A stretch of 64,000 nucleotides of DNA from Candidatus Latescibacterota bacterium (GTDB taxonomy: Bacteria; Latescibacterota; UBA2968; UBA8231), in NCBI GenBank assembly GCA_965261395.1, contig OZ253462.1:288001-352000 (forward strand), in the 5' to 3' direction. Shown one piece after another: positions 5,265 through 27,070 of this stretch. Each line of letters starts with the position of its first letter. Position 1 is the first letter of the stretch. The notes beneath the pieces were generated by a model that was not told the origin of the DNA, did no database searches, and worked only from the letters and a program-made list of their open reading frames with translations. Both the position numbers and the translations under genes were made by a program.

Positions 5265-7195
5265 CACCTCCACCTCCGCGCCGCGTCTCCCTCCGCGCCA
5301 TCGCCATCGGGGCCATCGGCTGCCTCGCCATCGCCGCGGGCGAACCGTTTGGCGTCTTGGTGATGCGCAGCTCGCCCATGGCCGCCGACTACTCGACCGG
5401 CGCGGCCCTGTTCTTGTTTTTTCTCGTCACCTTGCTCATCAACCCGCTCGCCAAATTGCTCACCGGCACCAGCCTGCACACCGGCGAGCTGGCCACCGTG
5501 TACATAATGATGGTCGTGGGGGCCGCCATTCCCTCTTGGGGCCTGACCATGAACCTGATCCCGCTCCTCGGCGGGTTCTTTTACTACGCCACCCCGGAAA
5601 ACGACTGGGCCAACATCATCCAGCCCTATATATCGCAGCTCCTCGTGCCGGAGGACAGCGCCGCCATCCAAAAGCTGTTTGAAGGCAACGCCCAAGGCGA
5701 ACGCATCCCTTGGGGGGCTTGGGCGACGCCGCTTATGGCGTGGGGCCTGTTTGTCGTCAACATGTACTTCACCACGCTGTGCGTGCTCGTCGTGCTGCGC
5801 AAGCAGTGGGTCGAGCGCGAGCGGCTCAACTTCCCGCTGGCCACCTTGCCCATCGAAATGAGTGCCCGCGCCAAAGACCAAGTCGTCGCACCTTTTTACC
5901 GCAATTACCTTACTTGGGTCGGCTTTGCCATTCCCGCGCTCATCGGCTCGGTCAACGCCCTGCACCGCTATTTCAACTTCGTCCCACAGATCGACCTCAA
6001 CCTCTGGGTGCCCCTTTTGCGCCGCTCCATCGGGGTCAACTTTCGCCCGCACTTCGAGGTCGTCGGCCTCTCCTACTTGCTCAATCTCGACATCTCCATG
6101 GGCGTGTGGTTTTTTGCCTTCCTCAACATGGTGGCCATAGGCTTGTGCCGTATGACAGGGTGGAATATCGGCCCGGAGCAGCCCTATTCCTCGCCGTCGC
6201 CGCCCAGCGTCGCCCACATCGCCCTCGGTGCGTTGTTTTTTCTCGTGCTGTCCAGCTTGTGGAGCGGGCGTCAGCACTTGCGCCAGGTCTGGCGCAAGGC
6301 TCTGCGCGGCGACGACTCCATCGACGACAGCGGGGAATTGCTCCCGTACCGCGTCGCGGTCTTTGGATTTATCGTCAGCTTTTTGCTCGGCCTGTTCGCG
6401 CTCTATGCTACCAACATGAACCTGCCGACCGCCTTTGTCTTTCAGCTTTCGGCCCTCGTCATATTCGTCGGCTTGGCCCGCATCATCTCGCAGGCCGGGC
6501 TGGCCTATTGCCGCGCTCCGGTGGCTCCGGCCGTGTTTACCGTCAACACGCTCGGGTCGTCGTCGGTGGGTGCCCCGGGCCTGACGGCGCTGGCGCTCAA
6601 CTTCCCTTGGTCGGCCGACATCCGCACCTTCGTCATGGCCTCGGCCGCCACGGGCCTCAAGCTGGCGGAAGTGACGCGCCTCGAATACCGTCGCTTGTTC
6701 TGGGCCATTGCCGTGGCCATTGTCGTCACTATGGCTGGCTCCATCACCGCAGTCATCCACCTCGCGTACACCTATGGGGGCATCAACCTGAGCAGTTGGC
6801 AGTTCGGCTATATGACGACCTATACCGGCAACTGGATTACCAACAACCTCAACAACCTCCAACCCACCCACGCTTGGCATTTGTCCTTTGCCGGCCTCGG
6901 CGCGCTCTTGATGGGCCTGTTGACGTTTATAAAAAACCGCTTCGTCGGCTTTCCCATTCACCCCATCGGCTTGGCCATCGGGCTGCCGCATCCCGTGCAA
7001 CTAATCTGGCCGTCGGTCTTTATGGCTTGGCTGCTTAAGGCGCTCATTCTCAAATACGGCGGTCCCCGGCTCTACACGCGCTTGCGCCCGTTCTTCTTGG
7101 GGCTGGTGCTAGGCGCGTTTGGCACCGCCGGGTTGTGGCTCATCATCGACTTCTGCACCGGCATGACGGGCAACCGGCTGATTAACATCGGCTGA
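5261..7195 (+). CDS. DUF6785/DUF6784-like integral membrane protein (putative peptide transporter)
   Basis: Many TM helices, RKQWVERERLNFPL and FPIHPIG motifs. TTG start overlaps the upstream stop. Confidence 0.7.
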   Translation: MTPPPPRRVSLRAIAIGAIGCLAIAAGEPFGVLVMRSSPMAADYSTGAALFLFFLVTLLINPLAKLLTGTSLHTGELATVYIMMVVGAAIPSWGLTMNLIPLLGGFFYYATPENDWANIIQPYISQLLVPEDSAAIQKLFEGNAQGERIPWGAWATPLMAWGLFVVNMYFTTLCVLVVLRKQWVERERLNFPLATLPIEMSARAKDQVVAPFYRNYLTWVGFAIPALIGSVNALHRYFNFVPQIDLNLWVPLLRRSIGVNFRPHFEVVGLSYLLNLDISMGVWFFAFLNMVAIGLCRMTGWNIGPEQPYSSPSPPSVAHIALGALFFLVLSSLWSGRQHLRQVWRKALRGDDSIDDSGELLPYRVAVFGFIVSFLLGLFALYATNMNLPTAFVFQLSALVIFVGLARIISQAGLAYCRAPVAPAVFTVNTLGSSSVGAPGLTALALNFPWSADIRTFVMASAATGLKLAEVTRLEYRRLFWAIAVAIVVTMAGSITAVIHLAYTYGGINLSSWQFGYMTTYTGNWITNNLNNLQPTHAWHLSFAGLGALLMGLLTFIKNRFVGFPIHPIGLAIGLPHPVQLIWPSVFMAWLLKALILKYGGPRLYTRLRPFFLGLVLGAFGTAGLWLIIDFCTGMTGNRLINIG

Positions 7196-13315: not shown

Positions 13316-14863
13316 ATGAACAAGCGCAGACTACCCATCGGCATTCAGACCTTCCGCGAGGTCCGCGAAGATACCTGCTACTACGTCGATAAAACCGCCT
13401 ACATCCGCCGGCTGCTCGACGAGGGTAAGCACTACTTCCTGTCGCGCCCACGGCGCTTTGGCAAGAGCCTATTCTTGGACACGCTCAAGGAAGTGTTCGA
13501 AGGCAACGAACCGCTGTTCGCGGGGCTGGACATTCACGACCGCTGGGATTGGTCGGTGCGTCATCCGGTGCTGCGGCTCGACTTCAGCAGTGGCACCTAC
13601 CAGGGGCCGGACGACTTGCGGAAGGAAGTGGCGGCGCAATTAAACACCTTGGAGGCCGAAGCGGAGATCGTCCCGCGCGACGACGAAGCGCCCGTCCGCT
13701 TCCGCCACTTGATGAAGGTGCTGCACGAGCGCAGCGGTCAGCGCGTTGCGGTGCTGGTCGATGAGTACGACAAGCCGATTCTCGATGCACTGGAAGTACC
13801 GGAGGTCGCCCGCGCCAACCGCGACTTTCTGCGCGGCCTGTATTCGACCGTGAAGTTTGCCGACGCGCACATCCGCTTCACGTTCATCACCGGGGTGAGC
13901 AAGTTTTCCAAGGTCAGCCTGTTTTCCGGCCTCAACAACCTCACCGATATCACCCTCGAACCCGAATACTCGGCCCTCTGCGGCTATACCGACGCCGATC
14001 TAGACGCCGTGTTCGCCCCGGAGTTGCCCGGCTTAGACCGGGACCAGATCCGCGACTGGTACAACGGTTATAGCTGGCTCGGCGACGAGAAGGTGTACAA
14101 CCCTTTTGACATCCTCCTGCTGTTTCGCCGCCGCCGATTCGCCGCCTATTGGTTTGAAACCGGCACTCCGACGTTTCTGATCGAAACGCTGTTCAAGCGC
14201 CGCGTCAGTTCCCTAGCACTCGATGAGATGGTCGGCAGCGACGAACTACTATCGACTTTTGATGTCGATGACATCGCAACCGAGGCACTGCTGTTCCAGA
14301 CCGGCTACCTGACGATAACCGACGAGGAAGACGTTGGCGGCGAGCCCGTCTATCGCTTGGGCTATCCCAACCGGGAGGTACGGCAGAGCCTGAACCGCAG
14401 CCTGCTGCGCTACTTGGTGCGCGATTCAACGCGGCAGATGGCCAACAGCGTGCAACTCTACCGGCTGCTGGAGGCTAACGACTTCGCCGGGCTGGAGACC
14501 CTGTTCCACGCCTTTTTCGCCAGCATTCCCTACGAGTGGTATTCCAACAACGACATCGCTAATTACGAGGGCTACTACGCCAGCGTGTTCTACTCCTATT
14601 TCGCGGGGCTGGGGCTGGACATCACAGTGGAGGACAGCAGCAGCCACGGACGCTTAGACATGGCGGTTCTATTCAATGGCAACATCTATCTATTTGAGTT
14701 CAAGGTGGTCGAGATGGCGTCTGCGGGTGCGGCGATGGCGCAGTTGCAGGAGCGGCGCTACGCGGACAAGTACCGCGCCTTGGGCCAGCCGATTTACCTG
14801 ATTGGCGTGGAGTTCAGCAAGGATGAGCACAACCTAGCGGCGTTTGAGGTGGAACGCGCCTGA
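13316..14863 (+). CDS. AAA-ATPase-like plus PD-(D/E)XK nuclease protein
   Basis: LPIGIQTF, YYVDKT, SRPRRFGKSL Walker A, VLVDEYDKP, C-terminal GRLDM...IYLFEFK. Confidence 0.9.
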   Translation: MNKRRLPIGIQTFREVREDTCYYVDKTAYIRRLLDEGKHYFLSRPRRFGKSLFLDTLKEVFEGNEPLFAGLDIHDRWDWSVRHPVLRLDFSSGTYQGPDDLRKEVAAQLNTLEAEAEIVPRDDEAPVRFRHLMKVLHERSGQRVAVLVDEYDKPILDALEVPEVARANRDFLRGLYSTVKFADAHIRFTFITGVSKFSKVSLFSGLNNLTDITLEPEYSALCGYTDADLDAVFAPELPGLDRDQIRDWYNGYSWLGDEKVYNPFDILLLFRRRRFAAYWFETGTPTFLIETLFKRRVSSLALDEMVGSDELLSTFDVDDIATEALLFQTGYLTITDEEDVGGEPVYRLGYPNREVRQSLNRSLLRYLVRDSTRQMANSVQLYRLLEANDFAGLETLFHAFFASIPYEWYSNNDIANYEGYYASVFYSYFAGLGLDITVEDSSSHGRLDMAVLFNGNIYLFEFKVVEMASAGAAMAQLQERRYADKYRALGQPIYLIGVEFSKDEHNLAAFEVERA

Positions 14864-14870
14864 TATAGAT

Positions 14871-15818
14871 ATGCTGAACGAACTGCGCAAAATCCGCTAC
14901 GCCCGCTTCCGCCTAGAGATGACCGCAGCTAGCCAATTGCGGTTGCCTCCCTACAAGGGATCCACCTTTAGAGGGGCCTTTGGCCATACCTTCAAACAGC
15001 TAGTCTGTGTCAAGCGGGATCTGGACTGTTCCACCTGTCTGATCAGCGACCGGTGCGTGTATTACTATGTCTTCGAGACCCCGTCCAATAGTGAGGGAGA
15101 GAAGGACAGTCGCGGATATACCTTTGCGCCGCATCCTTTTGTGATTGAACCGCCCGAGGAAACGCGGGAAATCTACGAGCCGGGAGCCGAATTGCGGGTC
15201 GGACTGGTTTTGGTGGGGCGTGCCTTGGACTACCTGCCCTACTTCATCTACGCCTTTGAGGAAATGGGGCAGCGAGGGTTAGGGGCCGGGCGCGGCAAAG
15301 CTGCTTTGCAGCGAGTTATTGCCCTCGGTCCTGAGCCTAGCGACGATAGGTGCATCTATCAGACCGGTACTGGGCAACTGGAGCAGGACTATCCGGTCGG
15401 CGTTGGTGCGCCTGACACCGAGGCCGTTGGAACGCGGCTCCGGCTGCGGCTGCACACGCCGCTGCGGCTCAAGAACGAGGGGCGCTATACTCGCCAGCTT
15501 GACTTTTCTCTATTGGTGCGATCCTTGTTGCGGCGCGCTTCGGATCTGGCCCGCTTTCACTGCGGGGCTGAGCTGGACCTAGACTATCGGCAGTGGATTG
15601 AGCGGGCAGCCGGGGTATCGGCGGCGACGACACTGCGCTGGCACGACTGGGAGCGGTATTCGCAACGGCAGGATCGGAGAATGAAGTTAGGTGGCTTGGT
15701 CGGCGAAGTGGAATTCGCTGGTGAGTGGCAACCCTTCATGCCACTGTTGCGGCTGGGCGCGGATCTACACGTGGGCAAGGGGACGGGGTTTGGACTAGGA
15801 CGCTACGAGATTTTGTAA
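14871..15818 (+). CDS. cas6: CRISPR pre-crRNA endoribonuclease Cas6
   Basis: GSTFRGAFG, C-x(5)-CxxC-x(4)-C, WHDWERYSQRQ, C-terminal G-loop HVGKGTGFGLGRY. Confidence 0.92.
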   Translation: MLNELRKIRYARFRLEMTAASQLRLPPYKGSTFRGAFGHTFKQLVCVKRDLDCSTCLISDRCVYYYVFETPSNSEGEKDSRGYTFAPHPFVIEPPEETREIYEPGAELRVGLVLVGRALDYLPYFIYAFEEMGQRGLGAGRGKAALQRVIALGPEPSDDRCIYQTGTGQLEQDYPVGVGAPDTEAVGTRLRLRLHTPLRLKNEGRYTRQLDFSLLVRSLLRRASDLARFHCGAELDLDYRQWIERAAGVSAATTLRWHDWERYSQRQDRRMKLGGLVGEVEFAGEWQPFMPLLRLGADLHVGKGTGFGLGRYEIL

Positions 15819-15835
15819 AGGAGCAGGATGAAGAC

Positions 15836-17524
15836 ATGAAACACAAACTAATCGCTGTGATCGGCAACACACCGCAAGTTATGACAGAGACTTTCTGGGC
15901 ATTGCGTTTCCAACTCCATGTGCCCATTGATGAAGTATTTGTGATGACGACAACTATGGGTAAAGCAACCTGCCAGCAACGCCTTTTGGACGAAGGCCGA
16001 TTTGCAAAGATGTTGTCGGACTACGATATCGACCCCGATACGGCCAAGTTCGACGCCGATCATATCCGTGTATTTAAAGATGCCGAGGGCAATTTTTTAG
16101 ACGATATCCGCACCTCTGATGATAATCGCCTAGCCAGGAATCAACTTTTCCGCTGGATTGAGGATTGGACCCAGAAGGATCATGTCGCTTTACACTGCTC
16201 GCTTGCAGGCGGACGTAAGTCAATGGGATACTTGCTCGGTGCTGCTATTCAATTTTTTGGCCGCCCACAAGATCGCCTGTATCATGCGCTGGTTACACCG
16301 CCAGAGATTGAAATGAATCGCGATTTTTTCTTTCCACCTGTTCGTGAAACGCAAATCCCCACGTCAGACGGGCAACACATTTCTACTGCTGATGTGCGTA
16401 TTGAGTTGGCAGAGTTACCCTATGTATCGGTAAGAGATATATCCGTATTTGGCGATGAAAGCTACGACCGAATTCTACAGAGAACACAAGAAGAGGTGAG
16501 GCGTATTCCACGTCTAAGAGCAGAAAACAAGCGATTGAGAGAAACATCGAGTAATGCCGGTGGATTGATCGGAAACAGTGCTGCTATGCGGAAAACCAAA
16601 GAACAGATTCGGCAAGCTGCTGATGCAGATGATGCAACCGTATTGCTCTTGGGTGAAACGGGAACGGGAAAAGAACGCGCAGGTGAAGAACTGCATGAGC
16701 AGAGCACGAGAAAAGATCGACCATTCATACCGATTAACTGTAGTGCATTCCCGGATACACTTTTAGAGGCAGAGCTATTCGGTGCGACACGAGGTACTTA
16801 TACCGGACAAGCCGGGCCGCGTAAGGGTGCGTTTCGCATGGCCGAAGGCGGTATCCTTTTTCTCGATGAAATAGGAGAATTATCACGTGATGGGCAGGCG
16901 AGGCTGTTGCGCGTATTACAAGAAAAGAAAATGCGCGCGGTTGGCAGCGATGAACCGGAGAAAGACATTGATGTACGCATTGTTGCGGCGACCAATCGCG
17001 ACTTAGAATCCATGGTTCGAGAAGGGGCTTTCCGAGAGGACCTGTTGTATCGCCTCAATGCTTTGACCATTTACATGCCACCGTTGCGAGAACTACGCGA
17101 AGATATACCGGAGCTAATCGACCTGTTTTGTGAACAGTTTAATGAAAAATACAAACGCAATGTTGTGGGCTTTGATGCCTCAGCTATAGACGCTATGTGC
17201 CGCTATACCTGGCCGGGTAACGTGCGCGAGCTTGAAAATGAAGTTCAGCGTATCGTCATTGCCGCGCCTCCGGGTGCATTTCGAGTACACAAGGAAAACT
17301 TAGCCAAGCATATTATTGAATCGACAGATTTAGACACGGGTAGTGGTACGCTCAAAGAACAAGTGGCACAGTTTGAGAAGCAAAAAATTGAGGAAGCGTT
17401 GGCGCAAACTCAGGGCGAAAGAGGATCTGCCGCAGAGATACTGGGTATCGACCCTACAACGCTGGGTAGAAAAGCTGAAAAGTATGGCTTATCTCTAAAA
17501 AAGAGTCATAAGGATCGTGAGTGA
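15836..17524 (+). CDS. CARF (NE0113/Sso2081-like) domain fused to sigma54 enhancer-binding AAA+ domain and Fis-type HTH
   Basis: N-term GNTPQVMTET and CSLAGGRKSMG CARF motifs; coiled-coil LRAENKRLR; GETGTGKE; ELFG..GTYTGQ; LFLDEIGE; AATNRDL; FREDLLYRLN; WPGNVRELEN; AAEILGI HTH. Confidence 0.9.
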   Translation: MKHKLIAVIGNTPQVMTETFWALRFQLHVPIDEVFVMTTTMGKATCQQRLLDEGRFAKMLSDYDIDPDTAKFDADHIRVFKDAEGNFLDDIRTSDDNRLARNQLFRWIEDWTQKDHVALHCSLAGGRKSMGYLLGAAIQFFGRPQDRLYHALVTPPEIEMNRDFFFPPVRETQIPTSDGQHISTADVRIELAELPYVSVRDISVFGDESYDRILQRTQEEVRRIPRLRAENKRLRETSSNAGGLIGNSAAMRKTKEQIRQAADADDATVLLLGETGTGKERAGEELHEQSTRKDRPFIPINCSAFPDTLLEAELFGATRGTYTGQAGPRKGAFRMAEGGILFLDEIGELSRDGQARLLRVLQEKKMRAVGSDEPEKDIDVRIVAATNRDLESMVREGAFREDLLYRLNALTIYMPPLRELREDIPELIDLFCEQFNEKYKRNVVGFDASAIDAMCRYTWPGNVRELENEVQRIVIAAPPGAFRVHKENLAKHIIESTDLDTGSGTLKEQVAQFEKQKIEEALAQTQGERGSAAEILGIDPTTLGRKAEKYGLSLKKSHKDRE

Positions 17525-17528
17525 ATGG

Positions 17529-17562
17529 CTGCAACCTTGCAGGGATTTCTGCAGAATTGCAT
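17529..17562. promoter_or_regulatory. Tandem palindromic upstream activator sequences (TGCA-N4-TGCA x2)
   Basis: CTGCAACCTTGCAG (17529-17542) and CTGCAGAATTGCAT (17549-17562), 20 bp apart, about 130-150 bp upstream of the predicted sigma54 start. Confidence 0.65.
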
Positions 17563-17608
17563 GACTGAACATGTTGTCGTCCATTTCCTGTTTCAGGAAA
17601 ACATCGCA

Positions 17609-17621
17609 CAACCTATTGTTT
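17609..17621. promoter_or_regulatory. IHF-like binding site
   Basis: CAACCTATTGTTT versus consensus YAANNNNTTGATW (one mismatch), between the UAS pair and the promoter. Confidence 0.45.
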
Positions 17622-17660
17622 TTCTTGATCTTTGAGAAAATTCGAAGGTTTTTTTGTGTT

Positions 17661-17675
17661 TGGCACGGGGATTGC
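17661..17675 (+). promoter_or_regulatory. Sigma54 (-24/-12) promoter
   Basis: TGGCACGGGGATTGC = TGGCAC-N5-TTGC with correct GG-N10-GC spacing; directly downstream of a bEBP gene and upstream of a GGAGG RBS. Confidence 0.85.
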
Positions 17676-17740
17676 GACTGTATAAGCAAAAGGTGAACAG
17701 TTTCAGTAAATCCGCAGCAAACATTAAATGGAGGAACAAC

Positions 17741-18091
17741 ATGAACACTCTAATCAATCAGGGGGATGAGCAATATTATTCTCAGGCCGGTTTCTGGAAT
17801 AAGTTGCGCAACTTCGCACGTACCGCGGGTCGGGAAGTCGTCGAGCATGCCCTGTCGCTCTACTACACCGCACAGGATCCTAACACACCGGCCTGGGCCA
17901 AGACGGTTATCTACGGAGTGTTGGGGTACTTCATCCTGCCGGTCGATCTAATTCCCGACCTGATCCCAGTCGTCGGCTTCAGCGACGATTTGGCTGCGTT
18001 TGTCGCCGCACTCGCTACCGTGGGGATCCATGTGACGCCTGAGATTAAAAACCGCGCCAAGAAGAAAGCAGCCGAGTGGTTTGGTAAGTGA
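17741..18091 (+). CDS. DUF1232/YkvA family small membrane protein
   Basis: TPAWAK..IYGVLGYFILPVDLIPDLIPVVGFSDD signature; GGAGG RBS. Confidence 0.9.
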   Translation: MNTLINQGDEQYYSQAGFWNKLRNFARTAGREVVEHALSLYYTAQDPNTPAWAKTVIYGVLGYFILPVDLIPDLIPVVGFSDDLAAFVAALATVGIHVTPEIKNRAKKKAAEWFGK

Positions 18092-18206
18092 GCAATGCAA
18101 GCAGAAGAGTTTTTAAGCATATTTATGAGTTTGGGTTGGCTCTGTACGTGGGCTAAGAGACGGGTTTGGGCTGGGATGCTACGGGATTTTATACAGGAGA
18201 AGGTTG

Positions 18207-20540
18207 ATGGTATCAAGAGACGCCCTAGTTGTCGGGGCCTTGCTGCACGATATAGGCAAATTTGAATTCAGGACATCGGACCGACGTACGCGCCACACCA
18301 CCTACGGGGATTTTTTTGTAGGCAAGTATCTGAGTCGTTTCCGCTGCTTGGAACCGATTCGGGAGGAGGTTCGCCGGTTGGTCGCCCATCACCACGATAG
18401 TGAGTTGGGTGATCCCTTTCTGCGGGAGGCCGACCATCTAGCGGCGGCGGATCGGCAGGTGGACGGCAGTCCCGAGACCCTGCGGTCGCTGGTGAGTATC
18501 CTGACCGCCGTGAACATTGGGAAGGGATCCTCACCACAGGATGTGCATCGGTATGCGCCGGGGCCGGTGGATTTTGCCAACCCCTTTCCCGAACACGTAT
18601 CAGGGGTCACGCCCGTCGAGTGGAAGCCCGACCGGGACCAAGCGCGAGACGAGCACGCCCGCGCTTGGGAGCAATTTTGCGCCGAGATCGGCACAATGCC
18701 CGATGGCGAGTTGGCGAGTTGGATTGAGACGTTCTTGGCGGTGGCTCGCAAGCATCTGAGTCGCGTGGCCTCGGCTGCCTACAAATCGCATCCAGATATT
18801 TCGCTCTACGATCACGCCCGCTCGGTGGCCGCCATTGCGGTGTGCCTACACGAGGCACATCAGCAAGCGGAGCCTTTCCTATTGATTCAGGGGGATATAT
18901 CGGGCGTTCAGTCCTTTCTCTATAAACTGGCTAGCCCAGCCGAAGAGGGAGGGACGAAAAATACCGCCAAGCGTTTACGGGGACGGTCGCTATTTCTAGT
19001 GCTACTAGCCGAGACCGTAGCACGTTATTACTTGCGTAAATTGAATTTGCCTCCGACCAACCTGCTGTACTGTGGCGGGGGGCACTTTTCGATCCTTGCG
19101 CCCCATACTGACGAGCTGAAAACCAAGCTGGCCGAGGCCGAAGAGCAGGTCAACCGCTGGTTGATCGACCAGCACCGGGGCGATCTGGCACTAGTGAGCG
19201 CAGCCACCTCGGCCGATAAGGAGTTGCTGGCCAATTTCCCTCGTTTGATGCAGCAATCGGGCTACGAGCTGGGCCGGGCCAAGCGGCAGAAATTCCGCTC
19301 CGTACTGGATGAGCGACTGTTCGCGTTGCCGGACTATGACCAGACCATGGACGTCTGCCCGGTATGCCAAGCTGATTTCGTCAAAGGCTCCGGGAAGACC
19401 TGTATGACCTGTAAACAACATGTGGAGACCGGGAGCCAAATCGTCCGGGCAGAGTTCTTGGTGCGGTTTGAAGGGGAAAATTTGGACGGGGAATTCGCCC
19501 AATTAGGTTTTGCTTGGGAATTGGCTGCCGACTGGAAAGAGGTTGTCCAGCTAGTAGGGGAAACCCCAGCCGAGCGCGTACATGTGGAACGGCTCAACCG
19601 CAGTGATTTCCTGACTCAGGCCGGCGCGGCCTTGGGTACGCGACATAGCCTCAGCTTCGGGTTCCGGCCACTCGGCCAGTACGCCCCCATTGACGAGCAA
19701 GAGAAGGGGCCGCTGGACTTTGAACACTTGGCCCAAATCAATAGTGAAAAATACCCGCTATTGGGAGTGGTACGCCTCGATGTCGATGCGCTGGGCGCAG
19801 TATTCGCTTCGGGGTTGGGGGAACAGCGATCTCTATCGCGCACAGCCACTTTGAGCCGCGAATTGGAGACCTTCTTCTCTGGCTATGTCAACACCTTGGC
19901 CAAAGATCATTATATGTACATCACCTACGCCGGAGGCGACGACCTGTTCGCCGTAGGCTCTTGGATCAACGCCCTTGAATTCAGTCGCGCCTTGCGGCGG
20001 GACTTTGGTCAGTTCAGCGGTGGCAATCCCAATCTGACCTTTTCCGGCGGTCTGTTTTTTTGCAAGCCGGATTTCCCCATCGGACGGGCTGCCGAAGCCG
20101 CTGGCAAACTGGAGAAGCGGGCCAAGGATTTCCCAGACAAGAATGCCGCCTGCCTGTTTGACGAAGAGGTCTCTTGGGAACGGCTCGACAAGTTGCTCGC
20201 CTTTGGCGACGAACTACTGTACTTGGTGACCGAAGCGGACCCAAACAACCGCTTGCCCCGCTCGTTTGTGCATCGTCTGTTGAGCTTGGGAGCCGAGCGC
20301 CGGTTGGCCCAAGAAGAAGGAAAATTAAAAGCCGAAATAAAAACTCAAATACAGCTCAAATATCTCGTAGCCCGACGCGGGGCCACCAGCAAGGCGATCA
20401 GCGACAATCAGGAGATGGAGGCAGACCGACGCAGAATAGGTGCCTTGGGACGACTGGTCAACGAGCCGGAATTGATGCGCCAGATCGCCGTACCTGCATC
20501 ATACGTACTGTACAAGACGCGAAACCTCAACACAGAGTAG
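18207..20540 (+). CDS. cas10: Type III-A Cas10/Csm1
   Basis: LLHDIGK HD motif, DISLYDH, GDISGVQ, CPVC/CMTC zinc finger, YAGGDDL palm motif (GGDD at 19932-19943). Confidence 0.97.
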   Translation: MVSRDALVVGALLHDIGKFEFRTSDRRTRHTTYGDFFVGKYLSRFRCLEPIREEVRRLVAHHHDSELGDPFLREADHLAAADRQVDGSPETLRSLVSILTAVNIGKGSSPQDVHRYAPGPVDFANPFPEHVSGVTPVEWKPDRDQARDEHARAWEQFCAEIGTMPDGELASWIETFLAVARKHLSRVASAAYKSHPDISLYDHARSVAAIAVCLHEAHQQAEPFLLIQGDISGVQSFLYKLASPAEEGGTKNTAKRLRGRSLFLVLLAETVARYYLRKLNLPPTNLLYCGGGHFSILAPHTDELKTKLAEAEEQVNRWLIDQHRGDLALVSAATSADKELLANFPRLMQQSGYELGRAKRQKFRSVLDERLFALPDYDQTMDVCPVCQADFVKGSGKTCMTCKQHVETGSQIVRAEFLVRFEGENLDGEFAQLGFAWELAADWKEVVQLVGETPAERVHVERLNRSDFLTQAGAALGTRHSLSFGFRPLGQYAPIDEQEKGPLDFEHLAQINSEKYPLLGVVRLDVDALGAVFASGLGEQRSLSRTATLSRELETFFSGYVNTLAKDHYMYITYAGGDDLFAVGSWINALEFSRALRRDFGQFSGGNPNLTFSGGLFFCKPDFPIGRAAEAAGKLEKRAKDFPDKNAACLFDEEVSWERLDKLLAFGDELLYLVTEADPNNRLPRSFVHRLLSLGAERRLAQEEGKLKAEIKTQIQLKYLVARRGATSKAISDNQEMEADRRRIGALGRLVNEPELMRQIAVPASYVLYKTRNLNTE

Positions 20541-20549
20541 GAGACCATC

Positions 20550-21008
20550 ATGGCTAACGAACACAGAGGAAGTGGGGGTGGAGGAGCCGACCGTCGGAGG
20601 GACCAGACCACCAGGGCTAACAAACAGCCCATTAATTTGGGCACCATTACTCCCCAGGAACTGAACCGCCGGGGTGAAGAGTTGGGCAAGGAACTGGCAA
20701 GGAACATTAAGGCCAACCAGATCCGCAATATCTACGGTGCGGTCCAGCACATTCGCGTCCGCGCGAGTCGGCCCCAACCCGATACCGAAGATATCAATCG
20801 CCGCCTGATCTTCCTCAAGCCAAAACTGGCCTATGCCAGTGGTCGGCAAAATAATTTGAGGGGCTTACGGGATGTATTGGTGGAGGCGATTGATAGCGTA
20901 GTACGAAGCGAAGACCCCCAAAAAGCGCAAAAAGCGCGGGATAACTTTTTCATCCTGATGGAATCTATCGTGGCCTACCACAAATTCTACGGCGGCAAAG
21001 ATTCGTAA
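20550..21008 (+). CDS. csm2: Type III-A small subunit Csm2
   Basis: NQIRNIY, LKPKLAYASGR, ESIVAYHKF. Confidence 0.95.
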   Translation: MANEHRGSGGGGADRRRDQTTRANKQPINLGTITPQELNRRGEELGKELARNIKANQIRNIYGAVQHIRVRASRPQPDTEDINRRLIFLKPKLAYASGRQNNLRGLRDVLVEAIDSVVRSEDPQKAQKARDNFFILMESIVAYHKFYGGKDS

Positions 21009-21030
21009 ACCATAGGAGAACAGTACCATT

Positions 21031-21852
21031 ATGGCTCAATTTATTGGCAATATCATTATGCGCGGCAAAATCGAGTGCCTCACCGGTCTGCACATTGGGG
21101 CGGGCAAGGACACTGCCGAGATCGGCGGAGTCGATAGCCCGGTAGTGCGCGACCCCCATAGCCGCCGGCCCTATATCCCTGGCTCTTCCCTCAAAGGCAA
21201 GATGCGTTCCATGCTGGAGTTCGCTACGGGCAAAGTGAAGGATGGCAAGGTGCATACTTGTAACGAGGCCCGCTGCGAGGTGTGTCGGCCTTTTGGGTCG
21301 TCGGCCGCAGATGCGCGCAAATGCGGTCCCACGCGGCTGTTGGTAAGGGACGCCTATCCCGACGAGCAGACCCAAAGCATGTGGGAGAATCTGAGTACCG
21401 ACTTACTCTACGCGGAGATGAAATCGGAAAACTTTTTGGATCGCATCACTTCGGCGGCCAATCCCCGTTTCATCGAGCGGGTGGTCAAGGGATCGTGCTT
21501 CAATTTGGAAATGATCTATGGAGTCTATCAGGTGGACGGCGTCAACGACCTCGACTTTTTCGCCCATGTAGTGACCGCGCTGCGCCTGCTTGAAGACGGC
21601 ACCTTGGGCGGCAACGGCAGCCGAGGCTACGGCCAGATACGCCTGAAGCTGGCCGACCCTGTTTTCTTAAGTGGGCAAGACTACTGCGAAGGTAGCGATG
21701 CCTGGAAACAAGCCCGTCAGTGGCCAGCCGACGAAGCCATTGTGCGGGGCATGGGTGACTTCTCGTTGAACCGAGAGGATGCTACCTGCCAATCATGGGA
21801 TGAGATAATGAAGTCGCCAGAGGACGAGGTGGGCAAAGAGGGGCATGGATGA
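21031..21852 (+). CDS. csm3: Type III-A backbone RAMP Csm3
   Basis: TGLHIG, IGGVDSPVVRDP (catalytic Asp present), PYIPGSSLKGKMRS, LGGNGSRGYG. Confidence 0.95.
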   Translation: MAQFIGNIIMRGKIECLTGLHIGAGKDTAEIGGVDSPVVRDPHSRRPYIPGSSLKGKMRSMLEFATGKVKDGKVHTCNEARCEVCRPFGSSAADARKCGPTRLLVRDAYPDEQTQSMWENLSTDLLYAEMKSENFLDRITSAANPRFIERVVKGSCFNLEMIYGVYQVDGVNDLDFFAHVVTALRLLEDGTLGGNGSRGYGQIRLKLADPVFLSGQDYCEGSDAWKQARQWPADEAIVRGMGDFSLNREDATCQSWDEIMKSPEDEVGKEGHG

Positions 21853-22814
21853 AAGCGATCTATCTGCAATCCCGAGGGGCCTATCGCAACGAGCTGCATT
21901 CGGACACCCTATTCGGACTGATTTGCTGGGCGATCCGTCAGGTCTTTTCGGAGGCGAGGTTGGTGGAGTTGCTAAAAGCCTTTTATGCTGGCCAGCCCCC
22001 CTTCCTGCTTAGCTCAGCTTTCCCCTGCGCCAAAGACGGCACCGCCGTCTGGAAGCCCTTTTTGCCTCGTCCGTTGCTTCCACCTCCGGCGCCTGTGGAA
22101 GATCTGAGCCCCGAAGAAGCTCAGCGGCTCAAACGGTACAAGCGGCTCCGCTATATTCCCGCCGATCACTTCAATCAATTTTTGCAGGGCGACTATTCGG
22201 AGGGTTCGTATTATGAGTCCGATGTCTGGGAAAAAACTACGGTGCCGATTCCCCGGCGTACTGACCGCTTGCATGGCACCATTGATCGATTGAGCGGCAC
22301 TACCGATGGAGAGGGCACACTGTTCTCCGAGCCCGAATACCGGACGGACGGACTCTACTTCTTGCTCGACGGGGAAGAAGCCGAACTAGTGGAAAACGCG
22401 CTCCGTTTTCTGGAGGATTTCGGCTGGGGTGGAGGCAATAGCGTGGGCTATGGCCACTTTGCTGCGACCGTAGGTGAAAGCCCGCTCGCCGTCGCCGTCT
22501 CTGCGCCGGATCGCTTTATCACCCTGTCCCTGTACCATCCTCGATCCGACGAACTCGCGCATTTCAAAACTGGGGAAGCGTGGTACGAGTTGGTGGTTCG
22601 CAAGGGCAAGGTGGGCGGCCACTTCCTCCAAACGGGCGACTTTTGGAAGCGCTCGGTATTGATGTTTGCTCCCGGCTCGACCTTCCCAGCGATGGCGGAA
22701 AAGCAAGTGTACGGACGCAATCCCATTGTAAAGGGGCGGAAGGACGGGCTACCCTTCGACGTGCAGCAATTCGGCTATGCCCTTGCCGTGGGCATGAAAA
22801 CGGCCAGAGAGTAG
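21849..22814 (+). CDS. csm4: Type III-A RAMP Csm4
   Basis: HSDTLFG, LSSAFP, GWGGGNSVGYGHF, TLSLYHP, MFAPGSTF. Confidence 0.93.
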   Translation: MKAIYLQSRGAYRNELHSDTLFGLICWAIRQVFSEARLVELLKAFYAGQPPFLLSSAFPCAKDGTAVWKPFLPRPLLPPPAPVEDLSPEEAQRLKRYKRLRYIPADHFNQFLQGDYSEGSYYESDVWEKTTVPIPRRTDRLHGTIDRLSGTTDGEGTLFSEPEYRTDGLYFLLDGEEAELVENALRFLEDFGWGGGNSVGYGHFAATVGESPLAVAVSAPDRFITLSLYHPRSDELAHFKTGEAWYELVVRKGKVGGHFLQTGDFWKRSVLMFAPGSTFPAMAEKQVYGRNPIVKGRKDGLPFDVQQFGYALAVGMKTARE

Positions 22815-22819
22815 AAATT

Positions 22820-24562
22820 ATGGAACGAAGAGTGCAGTGTCTGTCGCCGGTACACATTGGCACGGGTAAGGAACTAGAACCTTTCGACTATATCGTGGAT
22901 GGCCAACGCTATATTCGCGTCCACTTGGATGCAGTCCTCGAACGGATGACGACCGAACAAGTGGACGATCTGGCTGCCTGGGTGAGCGAGCGGGCTGACC
23001 AGATGGTAGAACTGGGAAGGAAGCAAAGCGATGATATCCGGCGGGAGATGCAGCTATCGAACTTCCCCGGCGCTGATGTCGCGTTACGGGAGGCTCTTCG
23101 AACGGACTCAGCCCTAGCTCGCTACCACGGCAATAAGGGATTTGATCGCAATTTGCAGGTGCGAGAGCAGGTCAAAGATGCCGATGAGACGCCTCTCATT
23201 CCGGGCAGTTCGCTCAAGGGTGCTCTGCGTACGGCCCTCGCTTTTGCCGCTTTGGAGGAAATGGAACTGGCCGAGCGGGAGGCGTTGAGACAGTCGCTTG
23301 AACGACGACTGAACGAGAGAGGCCCTCGTCTGCAAGAACGTATCGGCCAAGAGATAGAACAGGCCGTCTTCCGCTGTGGGAAGGAGCAGAGGGGGCGCAC
23401 TAGCTATGGAGACATCCACTACGACTTGATGAGGGCAGTCTCCGTCTCGGACACGTACGATGCCCAAGCGGAATTGATCGTGCCGCAGATATACACCTTT
23501 GTCGAGTCGCGCACCCGGGAGGGAAATACCAGACTCGCCGCCCAAGCGCCGCTTATCGTCGAAGCGCACGCACCGGGCAATATCTTCAGTCTGCGTCTGC
23601 GGATTGACGGTGGTCTCCTGCGGGCGATTAGTCAGAATGGTCGCAGAGGCGAGTGGATCAACTTTGAGCAACGGGTGCAGCGGGCCTTTGGCTCTGAGGT
23701 GGCGCGGCTGTTGCCGGGAGCATCGGACGAGCAAGTGGAGCAGGCCGTGGTAGGCCGGCTCGAAGCCGCGGCGCGGAGCTTTGCCAAGGCAATCGTGTCG
23801 GCTGAACAGGGCTGGGAGGAAGCACACGGGCACAGTTCCCGCGATCTAAAGGACTTTTACAATCGGCTAGACGACCTGATAGGAAAGGGATTGGTGCCGC
23901 TGCGGTTGGGCTGGGGCAGTCACTTTATGGCCACTACTTTGTTGCTGGCGCTCAAAGAGGATGCGGGCTGGCGTCCTATACTGGAAAGGTGCTTCCGGGC
24001 GTTTGATATAGGCGTTCCTCCAGGACGACATAGAGATAGGGGCAGAGATTCGGAGCGCCAAATTGAGCTCGACGACTTCCCCCGCTCCCGTCGGCTGGTT
24101 GCGGCCGGAAGGAGGCCTGTAGCCCCCTTGGGCTGGATCGCATTAGTGCCTACAGTGGAAGAGTTGCCCGGACCGCTGGTGGAAAAGGAGCGGCTGCTCG
24201 CCCGAACTCAGGAGAGCGAACCTAGGCGAGGGGAAAGGCCACAGGCGGACAGATATAGAGATGGGCGCGGCGGGCGCAGCGAGCCGGGACCGGCTCCACG
24301 CCCCGAACGACCTCTCCCGCAGATCAAGCTTCCGAAGCCTGCCTCGAAACCGCCGCCCCGCCAAGGGTCTCGGCCGGGCGACCGAGTCAATGTGGAAATC
24401 GTGGCCAACGACAACGCTCAGGTTACGGTAAAAGTGCTGGACGGTCAGGGCGAGGAGGTGCGGTTCCGGCAGCCTTACTATCCGGGCCGACCTGGAGAAA
24501 AGAGAAAGATGAAGGTCAGAGCAGTGGACTCCCAAGGCAAGATCACGCAGGTGGCCCCTTGA
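22820..24562 (+). CDS. csm5: Type III-A RAMP Csm5 with C-terminal extension
   Basis: LSPVHIGTG, IPGSSLKGALRTA, LRLGWGS, PLGW; ATG at 22820 (the ORF track start is too far upstream). Confidence 0.92.
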   Translation: MERRVQCLSPVHIGTGKELEPFDYIVDGQRYIRVHLDAVLERMTTEQVDDLAAWVSERADQMVELGRKQSDDIRREMQLSNFPGADVALREALRTDSALARYHGNKGFDRNLQVREQVKDADETPLIPGSSLKGALRTALAFAALEEMELAEREALRQSLERRLNERGPRLQERIGQEIEQAVFRCGKEQRGRTSYGDIHYDLMRAVSVSDTYDAQAELIVPQIYTFVESRTREGNTRLAAQAPLIVEAHAPGNIFSLRLRIDGGLLRAISQNGRRGEWINFEQRVQRAFGSEVARLLPGASDEQVEQAVVGRLEAAARSFAKAIVSAEQGWEEAHGHSSRDLKDFYNRLDDLIGKGLVPLRLGWGSHFMATTLLLALKEDAGWRPILERCFRAFDIGVPPGRHRDRGRDSERQIELDDFPRSRRLVAAGRRPVAPLGWIALVPTVEELPGPLVEKERLLARTQESEPRRGERPQADRYRDGRGGRSEPGPAPRPERPLPQIKLPKPASKPPPRQGSRPGDRVNVEIVANDNAQVTVKVLDGQGEEVRFRQPYYPGRPGEKRKMKVRAVDSQGKITQVAP

Positions 24563-24813: not shown

Positions 24814-25950
24814 ATGCGTTTCGTTCTGTCAACCGTTGGCACAAGCATCCTGACAAATCTCATTGATAACAGCAATCCTGACGAATCTATCTGGCGGAAT
24901 AGATTGCGGGATTCGGCGAATCTCAAACAGGGCGAACTAGAACCGGAAACTGAGACGGCGATCAATACACTTTCTGACCGGGCACTCGAAAAACTGATGC
25001 AAGATGATGCCGAAATCAACCGCCGAATTAGTGCCGAGTTGAACGGCATTTACGGTATCTACGGAAGTCAATTGCCTAAAAACAGCCCCGATGAGCACTA
25101 TCTCATCTGCACCGACACCGCACAGGGGCAGAAGACGGGCGAACTGATTGAGGATTTCCTTGGAGGGATGGGATTTAGGGTAGGAATCGTCACGCCTCCT
25201 CGGCTTTCGACACAAGATCCAGAATCCTTCACCACAGGCACGAAGGAACTCATTAAGTGGCTGGAGGACAACGTGCCGTGGCGACGTGATAGTGGCTATC
25301 GCGTGATTTTCAATCTGGTTGGCGGCTTCAAAAGTCTGCAAGGTTACATGAATACTTTCGGTGCATTTTACGCTGATGAGGTGATATACATCTTTGAGGC
25401 ACCAACCGCTGACTTAATCAAGATTCCGCGCCTGCCAATTCAGATTGACACCACCGTGGTTGAAAACCATCGGATGCAATTTGCATTGATGGATGCTGGA
25501 AAACTGTATCCGATTGAGGAACTCGAAGGTATCCCAGAAACGCTGCTTGAATTCGTAGAAGATAATGGCGTGAATTATGGGGGATTATCGGCGTGGGGAC
25601 AGTTGATCTGGAACCGAACGAAATCGGATCTATTGATAGATGCGTTATTGCCATTTCCACGATTGACATACGAGCAAGACTTCATCAACGACTGCGAGAC
25701 TTTGCACAACAAGCAACGCATTGATCTTCAAGAGACTTTAGCGAAGATCGCCGCCGTGCTCGAAGATAGCAGCGGCAACATAACACTGCTTAATAAGAGA
25801 ATTTCTGGACTGAACTTTGAAAAACTTCAAAATCTTGATATCTATACATTCCGTATTACTCTTGCCTACCGCGTCAGTTGCAAGGTTTCTAGAGATACAT
25901 TAATCCTTCGGCGCTATGGCGTTCATGACTACGTGTACCAAAATCCATAG
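24814..25950 (+). CDS. CARF (APE2256/Sso1393-like) - RelE-like effector, Cami1-like
   Basis: STVGTSILTN, SAELNG, TDT..G, NLVGGFKS, YIFE CARF motifs; C-terminal FEKLQ..IYTFRIT..YRV..LILRRYGVHD RelE-like domain. Confidence 0.85.
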   Translation: MRFVLSTVGTSILTNLIDNSNPDESIWRNRLRDSANLKQGELEPETETAINTLSDRALEKLMQDDAEINRRISAELNGIYGIYGSQLPKNSPDEHYLICTDTAQGQKTGELIEDFLGGMGFRVGIVTPPRLSTQDPESFTTGTKELIKWLEDNVPWRRDSGYRVIFNLVGGFKSLQGYMNTFGAFYADEVIYIFEAPTADLIKIPRLPIQIDTTVVENHRMQFALMDAGKLYPIEELEGIPETLLEFVEDNGVNYGGLSAWGQLIWNRTKSDLLIDALLPFPRLTYEQDFINDCETLHNKQRIDLQETLAKIAAVLEDSSGNITLLNKRISGLNFEKLQNLDIYTFRITLAYRVSCKVSRDTLILRRYGVHDYVYQNP

Positions 25951-26026
25951 GAAACATGGGTTGAACTCCAGGAGGACGCCCAGCTACGCGCCTATCGGGC
26001 ACTCGAATTTTCCAAGGGGTATCGCC

Positions 26027-27058
26027 ATGCCCACCCTGTACGTCACAGAACCCAGATCGGTCGTCCGGCGTTCGGTCGGCTCCGTCGTGGTAACGCTCAA
26101 CGAGGACCCCGACGGGCCGGGGCCACTGCCCGAACGCCAGCGGCGCTTGCTCGAAGTCGAGCCACATCGGCTGGAACTGATCGCCCTGGTAGGCCGCGTT
26201 CATATCACCGCAGACGCGCTCCAACTTTGCTTGGAGCAGGGCATTGCGGTCGCTTGGTTGCAGGCGAATGGGAATTTTATGGGCCGTCTCGTGCCGGAGT
26301 TGTCGCGCACGGCCGATCTGCGTTTGGCGCAGTTCCGCATGGCCGACGACGAGCCGCAGGCGCTGGCACTGGCTCAGACCTTTGTCGCAGCCAAGCTCCA
26401 CAATGCGGTTGGCCTGCTGACGGCTTTGCGCTCCAATCGCCGCAGCCAGCCTGCTTTGGGACGGGCCATCGGGGAACTCAGGGCCATGGCCGATACCGTG
26501 GCGCAGGCGACTAGCCGGGAGGTGCTACTGGGCTATGAGGGCGATGCGGCCCGGCGCTACTTTGCGGGGCTGCGGCTCGGTTTCACGGGTGCCATCGGCT
26601 TTGACGGCCGTGCTCGTCGGCCACCGCCGGACCCGGCCAATGCCTTGCTGTCGTTCGGCTATGTGTTGCTGGCTAATGTACTGGCGAGTCTGCTGGAGGC
26701 CTGCGGCTTCGATCCCTACTTGGGCTTTATGCACACAGTCCGTTCTGGGCGGCCCAGTTTGGCACTCGACCTTTTGGAGGAATTGCGGCATCCGGTCGTG
26801 GATCGCTTTGTGCTGCGGGTGTGCAATCGGGGACAATTGCGTCCCGAGCATTTTGAGACTGATGCCGAACGGGGCGGTGTGCGCCTCACCCGTGCAGGTA
26901 TGCGAATTTTCTTTCGCACTTGGGAAGCCTTTATGGACGCTCCACTGCCGGGGATTGGCACAGAGATGTCACCAGAAGAATTGCTTCGCCGTCAGGTTGA
27001 TCGTCTAGCGGCCCACGTGCGAGATCAAGCGCCATACCAACCCTTGCTTCTACGCTGA
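26027..27058 (+). CDS. cas1: CRISPR integrase Cas1
   Basis: LLGYEGDAARRYF, RRPPPDPANALLSFGY, DPYLGFMH, SLALDLLEELR. Confidence 0.96.
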   Translation: MPTLYVTEPRSVVRRSVGSVVVTLNEDPDGPGPLPERQRRLLEVEPHRLELIALVGRVHITADALQLCLEQGIAVAWLQANGNFMGRLVPELSRTADLRLAQFRMADDEPQALALAQTFVAAKLHNAVGLLTALRSNRRSQPALGRAIGELRAMADTVAQATSREVLLGYEGDAARRYFAGLRLGFTGAIGFDGRARRPPPDPANALLSFGYVLLANVLASLLEACGFDPYLGFMHTVRSGRPSLALDLLEELRHPVVDRFVLRVCNRGQLRPEHFETDAERGGVRLTRAGMRIFFRTWEAFMDAPLPGIGTEMSPEELLRRQVDRLAAHVRDQAPYQPLLLR

Positions 27059-27070
27059 GGAGGCTTGCCT

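Follow-up and report, generated by a model that had tools for sequence, protein, structure and literature searches.

What a sigma-54-dependent transcriptional activator is doing in the middle of a CRISPR locus, and which signal it would answer to, is the question raised by a gene (P0001) found at 15836–17524 on the forward strand of a 64,000-nucleotide stretch from a Candidatus Latescibacterota bacterium (contig OZ253462.1, positions 288,001 to 352,000; the whole stretch is referred to below as the window). A sequence-only reading of the window had placed this gene between cas6 and cas10 and had seen in it a CARF sensor domain fused to a bacterial enhancer-binding protein (bEBP). The observation holds up throughout. 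Both genes do flank it, with the refinement that a gene for a 116-residue DUF1232 protein sits before cas10. On balance, we favour the view that the protein is a sigma-54-dependent enhancer-binding protein with a regulatory CARF domain of the type that binds cyclic oligoadenylates (cOA), through which the CRISPR alarm molecule probably switches on the neighbouring genes. What is new in this analysis is a conserved sigma-54 promoter and enhancer directly behind the CARF-bEBP gene. We would class it as a new form of CARF-controlled transcription, in which a sigma-54 activator inside type III loci bears a CARF domain of the cOA type and is accompanied by its own enhancer-promoter and a DUF1232 gene.

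The listed reading frame extends from a GTG at 15725 to 17524. The start was placed at the ATG at 15836 because an AGGAG lies 12 nt before it, the cas6 stop is at 15818, and the resulting N-terminus, MxHKLIAV, is common to 26 relatives in the alignment; from this ATG the frame encodes the 562 residues originally described. On this protein, Pfam places Cas_NE0113 at residues 12–201 (6.7e-36), Sigma54_activat at residues 244–412 (1.8e-61, profile positions 1–167 of 168), AAA_lid_14 at residues 418–497 and HTH_8 at residues 510–550 (1.9e-11). The N-terminal PF09623 match scores 124.5 bits against a cut-off of 23, and the NCBIfam model TIGR02584 scores 176.6 bits against a cut-off of 80.65. Pfam and NCBIfam profiles therefore agree with the proposed series of CARF domain, bEBP AAA+ domain and Fis-type helix-turn-helix (HTH), and the profiles that the sequence-only reading had singled out for these domains (Cas_NE0113, Sigma54_activat and HTH_8) match as it had predicted; its other suggestions that were open to computation likewise came out as expected.

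The CARF domain spans residues 1–205 (15836–16450, forward strand) and is of the CARF5/Cas_NE0113 type, according to Pfam, NCBIfam, PADLOC, an AlphaFold2 (AF2) model, Foldseek and a dimer model. The PADLOC model CARF5--CARF covers residues 1–227 with an E-value of 4.1e-71, and the motifs GNTPQVMTET and SLAGGRKSMG, on which the CARF assignment had first been based, are present and nearly invariant in the family alignments. The AF2 model of residues 1–220, computed with 43 sequences, has a pLDDT of 89.6 and a pTM of 0.87. When it was compared with the PDB using Foldseek, the best matches were all CARF proteins: first the CARF domain of Cad1 with cA6 or cA4 (cyclic hexa- and tetra-adenylate; E 1.9e-06 and 2.8e-06, TM-score by target 0.68–0.73), then the ring nucleases Sis0455 with its substrate and Sso2081 with cA4, which is in agreement with the Sso2081-type CARF fold claimed for the N-terminus. 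Csa3 (2wte) is a weak match at rank 43 (E 5.9e-04). A 38-sequence CARF5 profile searched against the PDB likewise finds Cad1 (1.4e-05) and Sis0455 (5.3e-05).

In the alignment produced by this profile, T12, E18, T39, D90, R127 and K128 stand opposite S11, E17, T37, D75, R105 and K106 of Sis0455, residues for which roles in cA4 contacts and cleavage are described (PMC9638899). K128 also stands opposite K106 of Cad1, and the K106A substitution in TaqCad1 is reported to abolish both binding and cleavage of cA4 (PMC12669630). None of the six varies in the alignment of 43 sequences (A2), and in the 38-sequence profile alignment E18, T39, D90 and R127 are invariant and K128 is nearly so. Judging by these alignments, the putative ligand residues cover the Ser/Thr after strand 1, the Lys after strand 4, and the Asp and Arg of the small Crn1 enzymes. 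The modelled CARF homodimer is symmetric, with a score of 0.76 compared to 0.00 for the best of three controls (the mark set for this score is reached by 20 of 30 solved homodimers and by 1 of 23 single chains). The runs share at least 72% of their contacts with a partner pLDDT of at least 86, and the modelled interface includes residues 123–129, with K128 facing K128'. Since CARF dimers have already been solved, this pass may reflect likeness and not be independent proof. The domain would thus be a CARF domain of the cOA type, in which the residues of the cA4-binding and cA4-cleaving Cad1 and Crn1 proteins are kept.

The other kind of ligand to be considered comes from RtcR, which resembles the window protein in its CARF domain, its NtrC-type AAA+ domain, its Fis-type HTH and its presumed route from ligand to ring to sigma-54 transcription of an adjacent operon. 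RtcR-like genes also head defence operons, of the CoCoNuT and restriction-modification kinds (PMC4012209, PMC7790460, PMC11090510). By analogy, the CARF domain of the window protein could bind linear RNA or oligoadenylate ends with a 2',3'-cyclic phosphate instead of a ring, such as A2>p or A4>p from ring nucleases, or the cleavage products of Cami1 or Csm3, and the sigma-54 output would then be a response to RNA damage or to spent signal. Indeed, RtcR, the one studied CARF-bEBP, is reported to bind tRNA halves with a cyclic phosphate end (PMC7790460), the RtcR-like genes next to CoCoNuT and restriction-modification operons are predicted to act in the same way (PMC11090510), TaqCad1, a CARF5 relative, is described as activatable by A2>P at high concentration (PMC12669630), and the window locus itself encodes a RelE-type RNase. 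We nevertheless consider this possibility unlikely. The RtcR profile NF038308 reaches 294.1 bits against a cut-off of 650, at model positions 157–486 only, and the PADLOC model RtcR_PspF2 is matched only in its AAA-HTH part (model positions 150–480 of 481). As the RtcR models match through their AAA-HTH parts only and miss the CARF part, the sensor is not of the RtcR type, as had been proposed from the sequence; it belongs to another CARF clade (CARF5/Cas_NE0113) and lies inside a type III locus. It also keeps the full set of cA4-contact residues of Sis0455 and Cad1, and its dimer model is symmetric, which a symmetric ring ligand would require. In addition, while RtcR activates the rtcBA RNA-repair operon, neither rtcA nor rtcB is found among the 19 neighbouring open reading frames scanned here (cas and metabolic genes; the rest of the genome was not searched). 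The CARF5 models among the PADLOC hits are CARF5--CARF, CARF5--CARF_TM and CARF5--CARF_ADA, with no CARF5 AAA-HTH model among them; the names of the PADLOC models appear to follow the CARF classification of Makarova et al. 2020.

Between the sensor and the output domain lies a linker helix (residues 210–238; 16463–16549, forward strand), seen in the full-length AF2 model, in which residues 233–242 have a pLDDT below 50. What had been suggested as a coiled coil at this place is, in this monomer model, a single predicted helix. The sigma-54 interaction AAA+ domain with its lid covers residues 244–497 (16565–17326, forward strand), as supported by Pfam, by alignment with FleQ and ZraR, and by invariant Walker and sensor residues. 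It carries the Walker A motif GETGTGKE and the Walker B residues DE at 344–345, and G273, G276, G278, K279, D344, E345, R359, N387 and R464 are invariant in the 27 family members aligned, so that the AAA+ domain is complete (Walker A and B, R-finger and sensor II), just as first described. The PDB matches of this part are FleQ, ZraR, NtrC, NifA and PspF. The Fis-type HTH at residues 510–550 (17363–17485, forward strand) is likewise recovered, by the HTH_8 match mentioned above.

If the protein is an activator of this kind, a sigma-54 promoter should be sought near its gene, and the 216-nt spacer that follows it (17525–17740), which had been named as the region for a reporter assay, holds both an exact sigma-54 core and a conserved enhancer. 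The promoter core TGGCACGGGGATTGC (TGGCAC-N5-TTGC; 17661–17675, forward strand) is an exact match, with its GG at 17662–17663 and its GC at 17674–17675, and lies 137 nt after the stop codon of the CARF-bEBP gene, ahead of DUF1232 and cas10. About 0.0004 exact cores are expected on one strand of the spacer, and the 6.55-Mb genome contains 23 exact 15-nt cores of this form on both strands, against 9 for the reversed control. Two TGCA-N4-TGCA palindromes, CTGCAACCTTGCAG (17529–17542) and CTGCAGAATTGCAT (17549–17562), are candidate enhancer sites located 131 and 111 nt before the core, respectively. The genome has 37 exact sites of this type, and the only pair 19–21 nt apart that is followed by a sigma-54 core is the one at 17529–17562, from which the regulon looks local. 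An A/T-rich block between enhancer and promoter (17600–17629, forward strand) is made of conserved columns in the promoter alignment (A3), and may be a DNA-bending or IHF-like site; no convincing match to the IHF consensus was seen in it by eye, and it is kept here as a conserved block. The sigma factor is available, as the genome encodes rpoN (Sigma54_DBD 3.5e-60 in a 496-residue open frame), and the survey for host rpoN that had been suggested finds it in all ten genomes of the relatives, i.e. in 11 of 11 with the genome studied here. In a simple scan of 14700–18400, no terminator-like site was found on the forward strand and sigma-70-like sites were at chance level, and the 18080–18215 spacer folds no better than its shuffles (z 0.63).

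The protein database contains about 100 clusters with the same Pfam pair (P0001–P0102 except P0075, among the 120 matches listed). In species-representative genomes, close relatives were found in 11 loci (L002–L012), all from metagenome-assembled genomes of Candidatus Latescibacterota, and a scan of the phylum added one locus (L054). Loci matching only residues 1–23 or 1–56 (L022–L025) were left out of the fusion-locus counts, and ten loci with standalone CARF relatives (L013–L021 from other phyla, and L053) served as controls. L007 ends inside the CARF-bEBP gene, and the contig of L003 ends after cas6. An exact core is present on the gene strand, 137–280 nt after the stop codon, in the window, in 10 of the 11 loci L002–L012 and in L054, and the enhancer-promoter module follows the gene in all 11 related loci that have downstream DNA (12 of 12 with the window). 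Where cas6 intervenes, a second core is found before DUF1232 (L006, L009, L010, L011 and L054). In 214,591 nt of 11 fusion loci, all 16 cores lie on the gene strand, and the 121,548 nt of the ten standalone-CARF5 loci contain none. Of the 15 promoters, 14 have a TGCA-N4-TGCA site with at most one mismatch at −102 to −112; in L005 the enhancer site is degenerate and lies at −132. When the 15 promoters are aligned, TTTGGCAC...TTGC and the enhancer columns are invariant and the A/T-rich block is conserved, with variable flanking columns.

The genes around the module are those expected if its signal comes from a type III system: cas6 is adjacent to the CARF-bEBP gene in 12 of 12 related loci, Cas10 is encoded downstream in 10 of the 11 with downstream DNA, and the GGDD motif is intact in each of the eight related Cas10 proteins checked, which bears out the association of homologues with GGDD-intact Cas10 anticipated by the sequence-only reading. 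DUF1232 is found in 8 of 11 related loci. The modules located downstream are not of one kind, with csm genes in L005, cmr1-3 in L006 and L054, TIGR03986-type RAMP genes together with Cas10-like and Csx10-like genes in L004, L008 and L010, and Cas10/Csx10/Csx7 sets in L009, L011 and L012. The subtypes across the fusion loci thus differ, and comprise III-A, III-B and two III-D-like forms.

In the mechanism we propose, the III-A complex would meet its target RNA, and the GGDD cyclase of Cas10 would make cOA, probably cA4 because the locus also encodes the cA4-type effector Cami1. The cA4 would bind a pocket on the two-fold axis of the CARF dimer, lined by the six residues listed above (T12 to K128), and the 29-residue linker helix would release the AAA+ domains for ring assembly, as in RtcR. 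The Fis-type HTH would hold the ring on the two palindromes at 17529–17562, and the ring would use ATP to open the sigma-54 holoenzyme complex at 17661–17675. Transcription would then enter DUF1232 and probably continue into cas10-csm5 by read-through, or, in the relatives, into cas6 and the interference genes. Finally, the CARF domain would cleave cA4 and end the signal, which is probably self-limiting because the domain keeps the cA4-cleavage residues of Crn1 and Cad1. The sign of control, with the ligand activating, is supported by the RtcR precedent, where the CARF domain is reported to repress, the ligand to trigger oligomerisation, and truncation of the CARF domain to make the operon constitutive (PMC7790460). 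The effector domains of Cad1 are described as forming a hexamer that carries three CARF dimers (PMC12669630), which makes the geometry of an AAA+ hexamer with three peripheral CARF dimers feasible. The ligand, the direction of control, the ring-nuclease activity, the extent of the transcript and the role of DUF1232 are what we infer in this scheme. Calling the protein an effector may also be too narrow, because the promoter would drive cas6, DUF1232 and probably the interference genes, and its role may be to regulate the locus.

The direction of control could also be the inverse. The locus would then be driven constitutively or by another cue, and cOA would turn the protein off, or the CARF domain would be mainly a ring nuclease or a cOA sponge with little effect on the ATPase. 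The ring-nuclease residues kept in the domain, the annotation of standalone CARF relatives as ring nucleases, and the standalone CARF5 found in the same cas6-cas10 slot in L053 all speak for such a role, and the position of the interference module behind the promoter in several loci fits a promoter that is on before infection. However, the N-terminal sensor of bEBPs, RtcR included, is described as usually repressing until its ligand binds (PMC7790460), and in clades with only 43–57% identity the fusion, the linker helix and the AAA+ motifs have been conserved as a set, which argues for coupling between sensor and output. An inverse or quenching role is in our view improbable compared to activation by cOA.

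The CARF-bEBP gene, its promoter and DUF1232 make up a low-GC cassette. The GC content of the gene is 0.481, compared to 0.592 for cas6, 0.573 for cas10 and 0.593 for the genome, so the lower GC noticed by eye relative to cas6 and the csm genes is real. Compared with L004, only 15808–18091 (gene, promoter and DUF1232) is alike, at 88%. With L008, the flanks, the first 477 nt of the gene and 17550–18084 are alike and 16313–17549 is not, a difference that looks like an internal allele swap. In the comparison with L008:10478-11862, cas6 and DUF1232 share 95% and 93% amino acid identity, respectively, and the first 477 nt of the bEBP gene are about 90% identical; the rest of that gene in L008 (end of the CARF domain, AAA+ and HTH) cannot be aligned at the nucleotide level, and the two proteins are 47% identical overall. 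With L002, the likeness stops just before the sigma-54 core. A degenerate copy (~78%) of the cas6 3' end and junction (15761–15840) is found at 18138–18216 (forward strand; 79 nt, before cas10), and is a scar of the insertion of the cassette between cas6 and cas10. Empty sites are found in the same genus, in L059 and L060, which are without the gene and have a cas6-cas10 gap of 15–16 nt and no sigma-54 core. A CARF5 match at 1e-20 or better occurs in 19 of 168 genomes of the phylum, 13 of the 19 being of the close fusion type, and in 3 of the 30 other genomes of the genus. The empty sites, the cas6 duplication and this patchy spread indicate that the cassette is an accessory insertion, in agreement with its low GC. 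In L053, from another family of the phylum (G014:C128), the standalone CARF5 protein of about 377 residues is encoded at 4587–5717 on the minus strand, between cas6 and cas10-csm2-4 and with no sigma-54 core, and is a possible precursor state of the fusion.

The distribution of the cassette also bears on whether the CARF domain responds to a nucleotide at all, as a Cas protein or another protein could bind it in the way that RtcA and RtcB act on RtcR. RtcAB are reported to bind RtcR at its CARF domain (PMC9650030), and the middle of the gene, which is swapped between otherwise alike loci, could track such a partner. However, the cassette sits beside III-A, III-B and two III-D-like modules whose subunits are unrelated, for which a diffusible signal fits better, and the residues of the ligand pocket are invariant. 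The chance of control by a protein partner is therefore slight.

Several results weigh against the cOA-gated activator that we favour. An orthologous III-A locus of the same genus runs without the cassette, so the cassette is dispensable. The Foldseek TM-scores of the CARF model are moderate when normalised by query (0.42–0.56), and a single-sequence phmmer search of the domain against the PDB gives nothing significant (E 0.35–0.96). The full-length AF2 model has a pLDDT of 81.1 and a pTM of 0.48, which makes its domain arrangement unreliable. On the promoter side, the 16-nt sigma-54 pattern with one mismatch has 2 matches in the window for 2.13 expected, so the case for the promoter has to be made from the exactness, the position and the conservation of the core. 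Finding rpoN together with the gene has little discriminating power, as rpoN may be widespread in the phylum. In L003, L005, L009–L012 and L054, cas6 and all of the interference genes lie behind the sigma-54 promoter, and basal expression from elsewhere, presumably by read-through from the upstream gene, would be needed before any cOA is made. Lastly, the L1 loop (residues 320–325) reads GTYTGQ where FleQ and ZraR have GAFTGA in the alignment.

This variant of the sigma-54-contacting GAFTGA loop is absent from the sequence-only reading. The loop is G[AT]Y[TS]G[QL] in the clade of the window protein and GAF[TS][DGN]A or NAFT[GN]A in two sister clades, and most of the aligned sequences retain its Thr (three of the 27 have Ser). 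A Tyr in place of the Phe of GAFTGA is probably tolerated. A distant homologue with 33% identity and the same architecture (P0182) has the canonical GAFTGA, and a metagenome scan for relatives of P0182 gave only generic bEBP AAA+ matches (7 loci, query residues 271–566). That the GTYTGQ loop of this clade has lost the sigma-54 contact and that the protein is a TyrR-like sigma-70 regulator or a repressor is very improbable, given that all 12 loci, counting the window, have the exact invariant core behind the gene, that the loop Thr is mostly kept, that sister clades have GAFTGA or GAFTDA, and that rpoN is present.

The remaining genes of the locus give the setting in which the proposed activator would work. 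The cas6 gene (14844–15818, forward strand; Pfam CRISPR_Cas6 2.5e-21, PADLOC Cas6 1.5e-110) is separated from the CARF-bEBP gene by 17 nt and is probably co-transcribed with it. The first gene behind the sigma-54 promoter (17741–18091, forward strand) encodes P0122, a small membrane protein of 116 residues from the DUF1232 (YkvA) family (Pfam DUF1232 2.3e-13); it has a GGAGG 7 nt before its ATG at 17741, and the Atlas neighbours of P0122 are all DUF1232/YkvA proteins. After a gap of 112 nt comes cas10/csm1 (18204–20540, forward strand; TIGR02578, 549.9 bits), with an HD domain and an intact GGDD at residues 577–580, followed by csm2, csm3, csm4 and csm5 (20550–24562, forward strand; Pfam and NCBIfam). 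By its gene content, the locus is assigned to type III-A with a GGDD-intact Cas10. The listed csm5 frame, starting at a GTG at 22580, overlaps csm4 by 235 nt (22580–22814) and its Csm5 match begins at residue 85; the true start is probably later than this GTG.

Downstream of csm5, a gene with a GC content of 0.470 (24814–25950, forward strand) encodes a CARF-RelE effector of the Cami1 family (Pfam Cas_APE2256; PADLOC CARF7--CARF_RelE 5.8e-128). This CARF-RelE family has been named Cami1 and is described as cA4-activated (PMC11229360), which fits cA4 as the local signal. The gene may be a second low-GC island and a separately acquired accessory gene; a copy 70% identical to it is found directly after DUF1232 in L012. 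It is followed by cas1 and cas2 (25916–27358, forward strand; profile search) and by a CRISPR array (27552–32287, forward strand) in which a repeat scan counts 62 exact copies of a 37-nt repeat. At 29632–29785, two consecutive repeat-spacer units are 99% identical over 77 nt, indicating that one spacer was duplicated. On the other side of the locus, a gene with AAA-ATPase_like and PDDEXK_9 domains (13316–14863) runs 20 nt into the start of cas6. It is kept upstream of cas6 in L002, L007, L008, L059 and L060, with or without the cassette, and has no family match in PADLOC or NCBIfam.

In L002 (11945–20400; G001:C1:5524109-5524498), the same bEBP, enhancer and core are followed by open reading frames for an FGE/PvdO-like protein, an ankyrin-repeat protein, a double FGE-like protein and a Ser/Thr-kinase-like protein, with no DUF1232 behind the promoter; Cas10 is encoded on the same strand, some 14 kb further downstream. 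In this case the promoter seems to have been given cargo that is not of the CRISPR system. The phage records contained no match to the CARF-bEBP, and the ten genes matched on plasmids carry the annotation of CRISPR-associated ring nucleases, in nine cases as csm6; the one inspected (H1) is a standalone csm6. Four metatranscriptome runs contain small shares only, as contigs. One contig of 710 nt from the run X18, about 95% alike, covers 17550–18240, from an enhancer site through the promoter and DUF1232 into the start of cas10. It derives from a relative, its start lies upstream of the promoter, and it may represent either RNA or DNA carried over into an RNA library.

The outputs of type III second messengers are mostly allosterically switched enzymes and pores, and the transcriptional ones are, to our knowledge, few, namely Csa3 and the CalpL-CalpT-CalpS protease-sigma relay. 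By its domain composition, the window protein is neither RtcR nor Csa3. It resembles Csa3 in joining a CARF sensor to DNA binding and, probably, in the control of cas gene transcription, and Csa3a is reported to recognise cA4 (PMC8699464; PMC10013973). However, Csa3 is without ATPase or sigma-54, has a winged-helix HTH, and is mostly archaeal and linked to type I-A, whereas the window protein has an AAA+ domain between its CARF domain and its Fis-type HTH. The CalpL-CalpT-CalpS system also leads from a type III second messenger to transcription via an alternative sigma factor (PMC11229360), using a SAVED-Lon protease, an anti-sigma factor and the sigma factor CalpS, whereas the window protein alone would couple the signal to sigma-54. 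Cad1 (CAAD, a CARF5-adenosine deaminase), whose CARF domain is the nearest solved one, is reported to bind cA4 or cA6, with TaqCad1 cleaving cA4 (PMC12669630); its output is a deaminase and not a transcription activator. The Crn1 enzymes (Sso2081, Sis0455) share with the window protein the fold and the residues after strands 1 and 4, among them the Arg-Lys pair and the Arg-positioning Asp, but they are standalone enzymes of about 180 residues without an output domain, and cleavage by the window protein is a prediction. Finally, PspF of the phage-shock regulon is likewise a bEBP, acting at a sigma-54 promoter to express a small stress protein associated with the membrane (PMC4012209). PspF differs in lacking a sensor domain and in being under the control of PspA, to which DUF1232 is unrelated, judging by Pfam only.

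The literature found on CARF domains with sigma-54 or with enhancer-binding proteins is RtcR-related work only. In the parts available, PMC4012209 places RtcR and RtcR-like CARF-AAA-HTH proteins outside CRISPR loci and lists NE0113 as a CARF family without effector domain, PMC11090510 predicts RtcR-like genes to switch on CoCoNuT defence operons via sigma-54 in response to RNA ends, and PMC11229360 sets transcription factors aside. The available part of PMC12669027 includes transcriptional regulators among the cOA effectors, and the terms sigma, AAA, NtrC and RtcR are absent from it. No paper was found that describes this architecture in type III loci, which is in line with the sequence-only reading, whose author was not aware of it as a characterised effector class; the CARF classification of Makarova et al. 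2020 may list it. For DUF1232 together with CRISPR, the search returned one unrelated preprint only.

In its fullest form, to which we give somewhat less than an even chance, the finding would mean that a single cA4-sensing, self-quenching AAA+ activator wires the type III signal directly into sigma-54 transcription, as a plug-in cassette with its own enhancer, promoter and DUF1232 gene that serves III-A, III-B and III-D-like systems. On infection, interference would be boosted by positive feedback and DUF1232 deployed as a transcription-controlled effector. If this is true, a bEBP gated by cOA would link invader RNA to gene expression directly, powered by ATP and with tight off and on states, and, as the target promoter can be read from the sequence, the idea is directly testable. 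It would also provide a case of a CARF domain controlling an AAA+ ring, a first functional context for DUF1232/YkvA proteins, and, for synthetic biology and type III-based diagnostics, an orthogonal sigma-54 switch that is compact and responds to cOA. The movement of the cassette between subtypes, together with the empty sister sites, shows how type III loci acquire regulatory add-ons.

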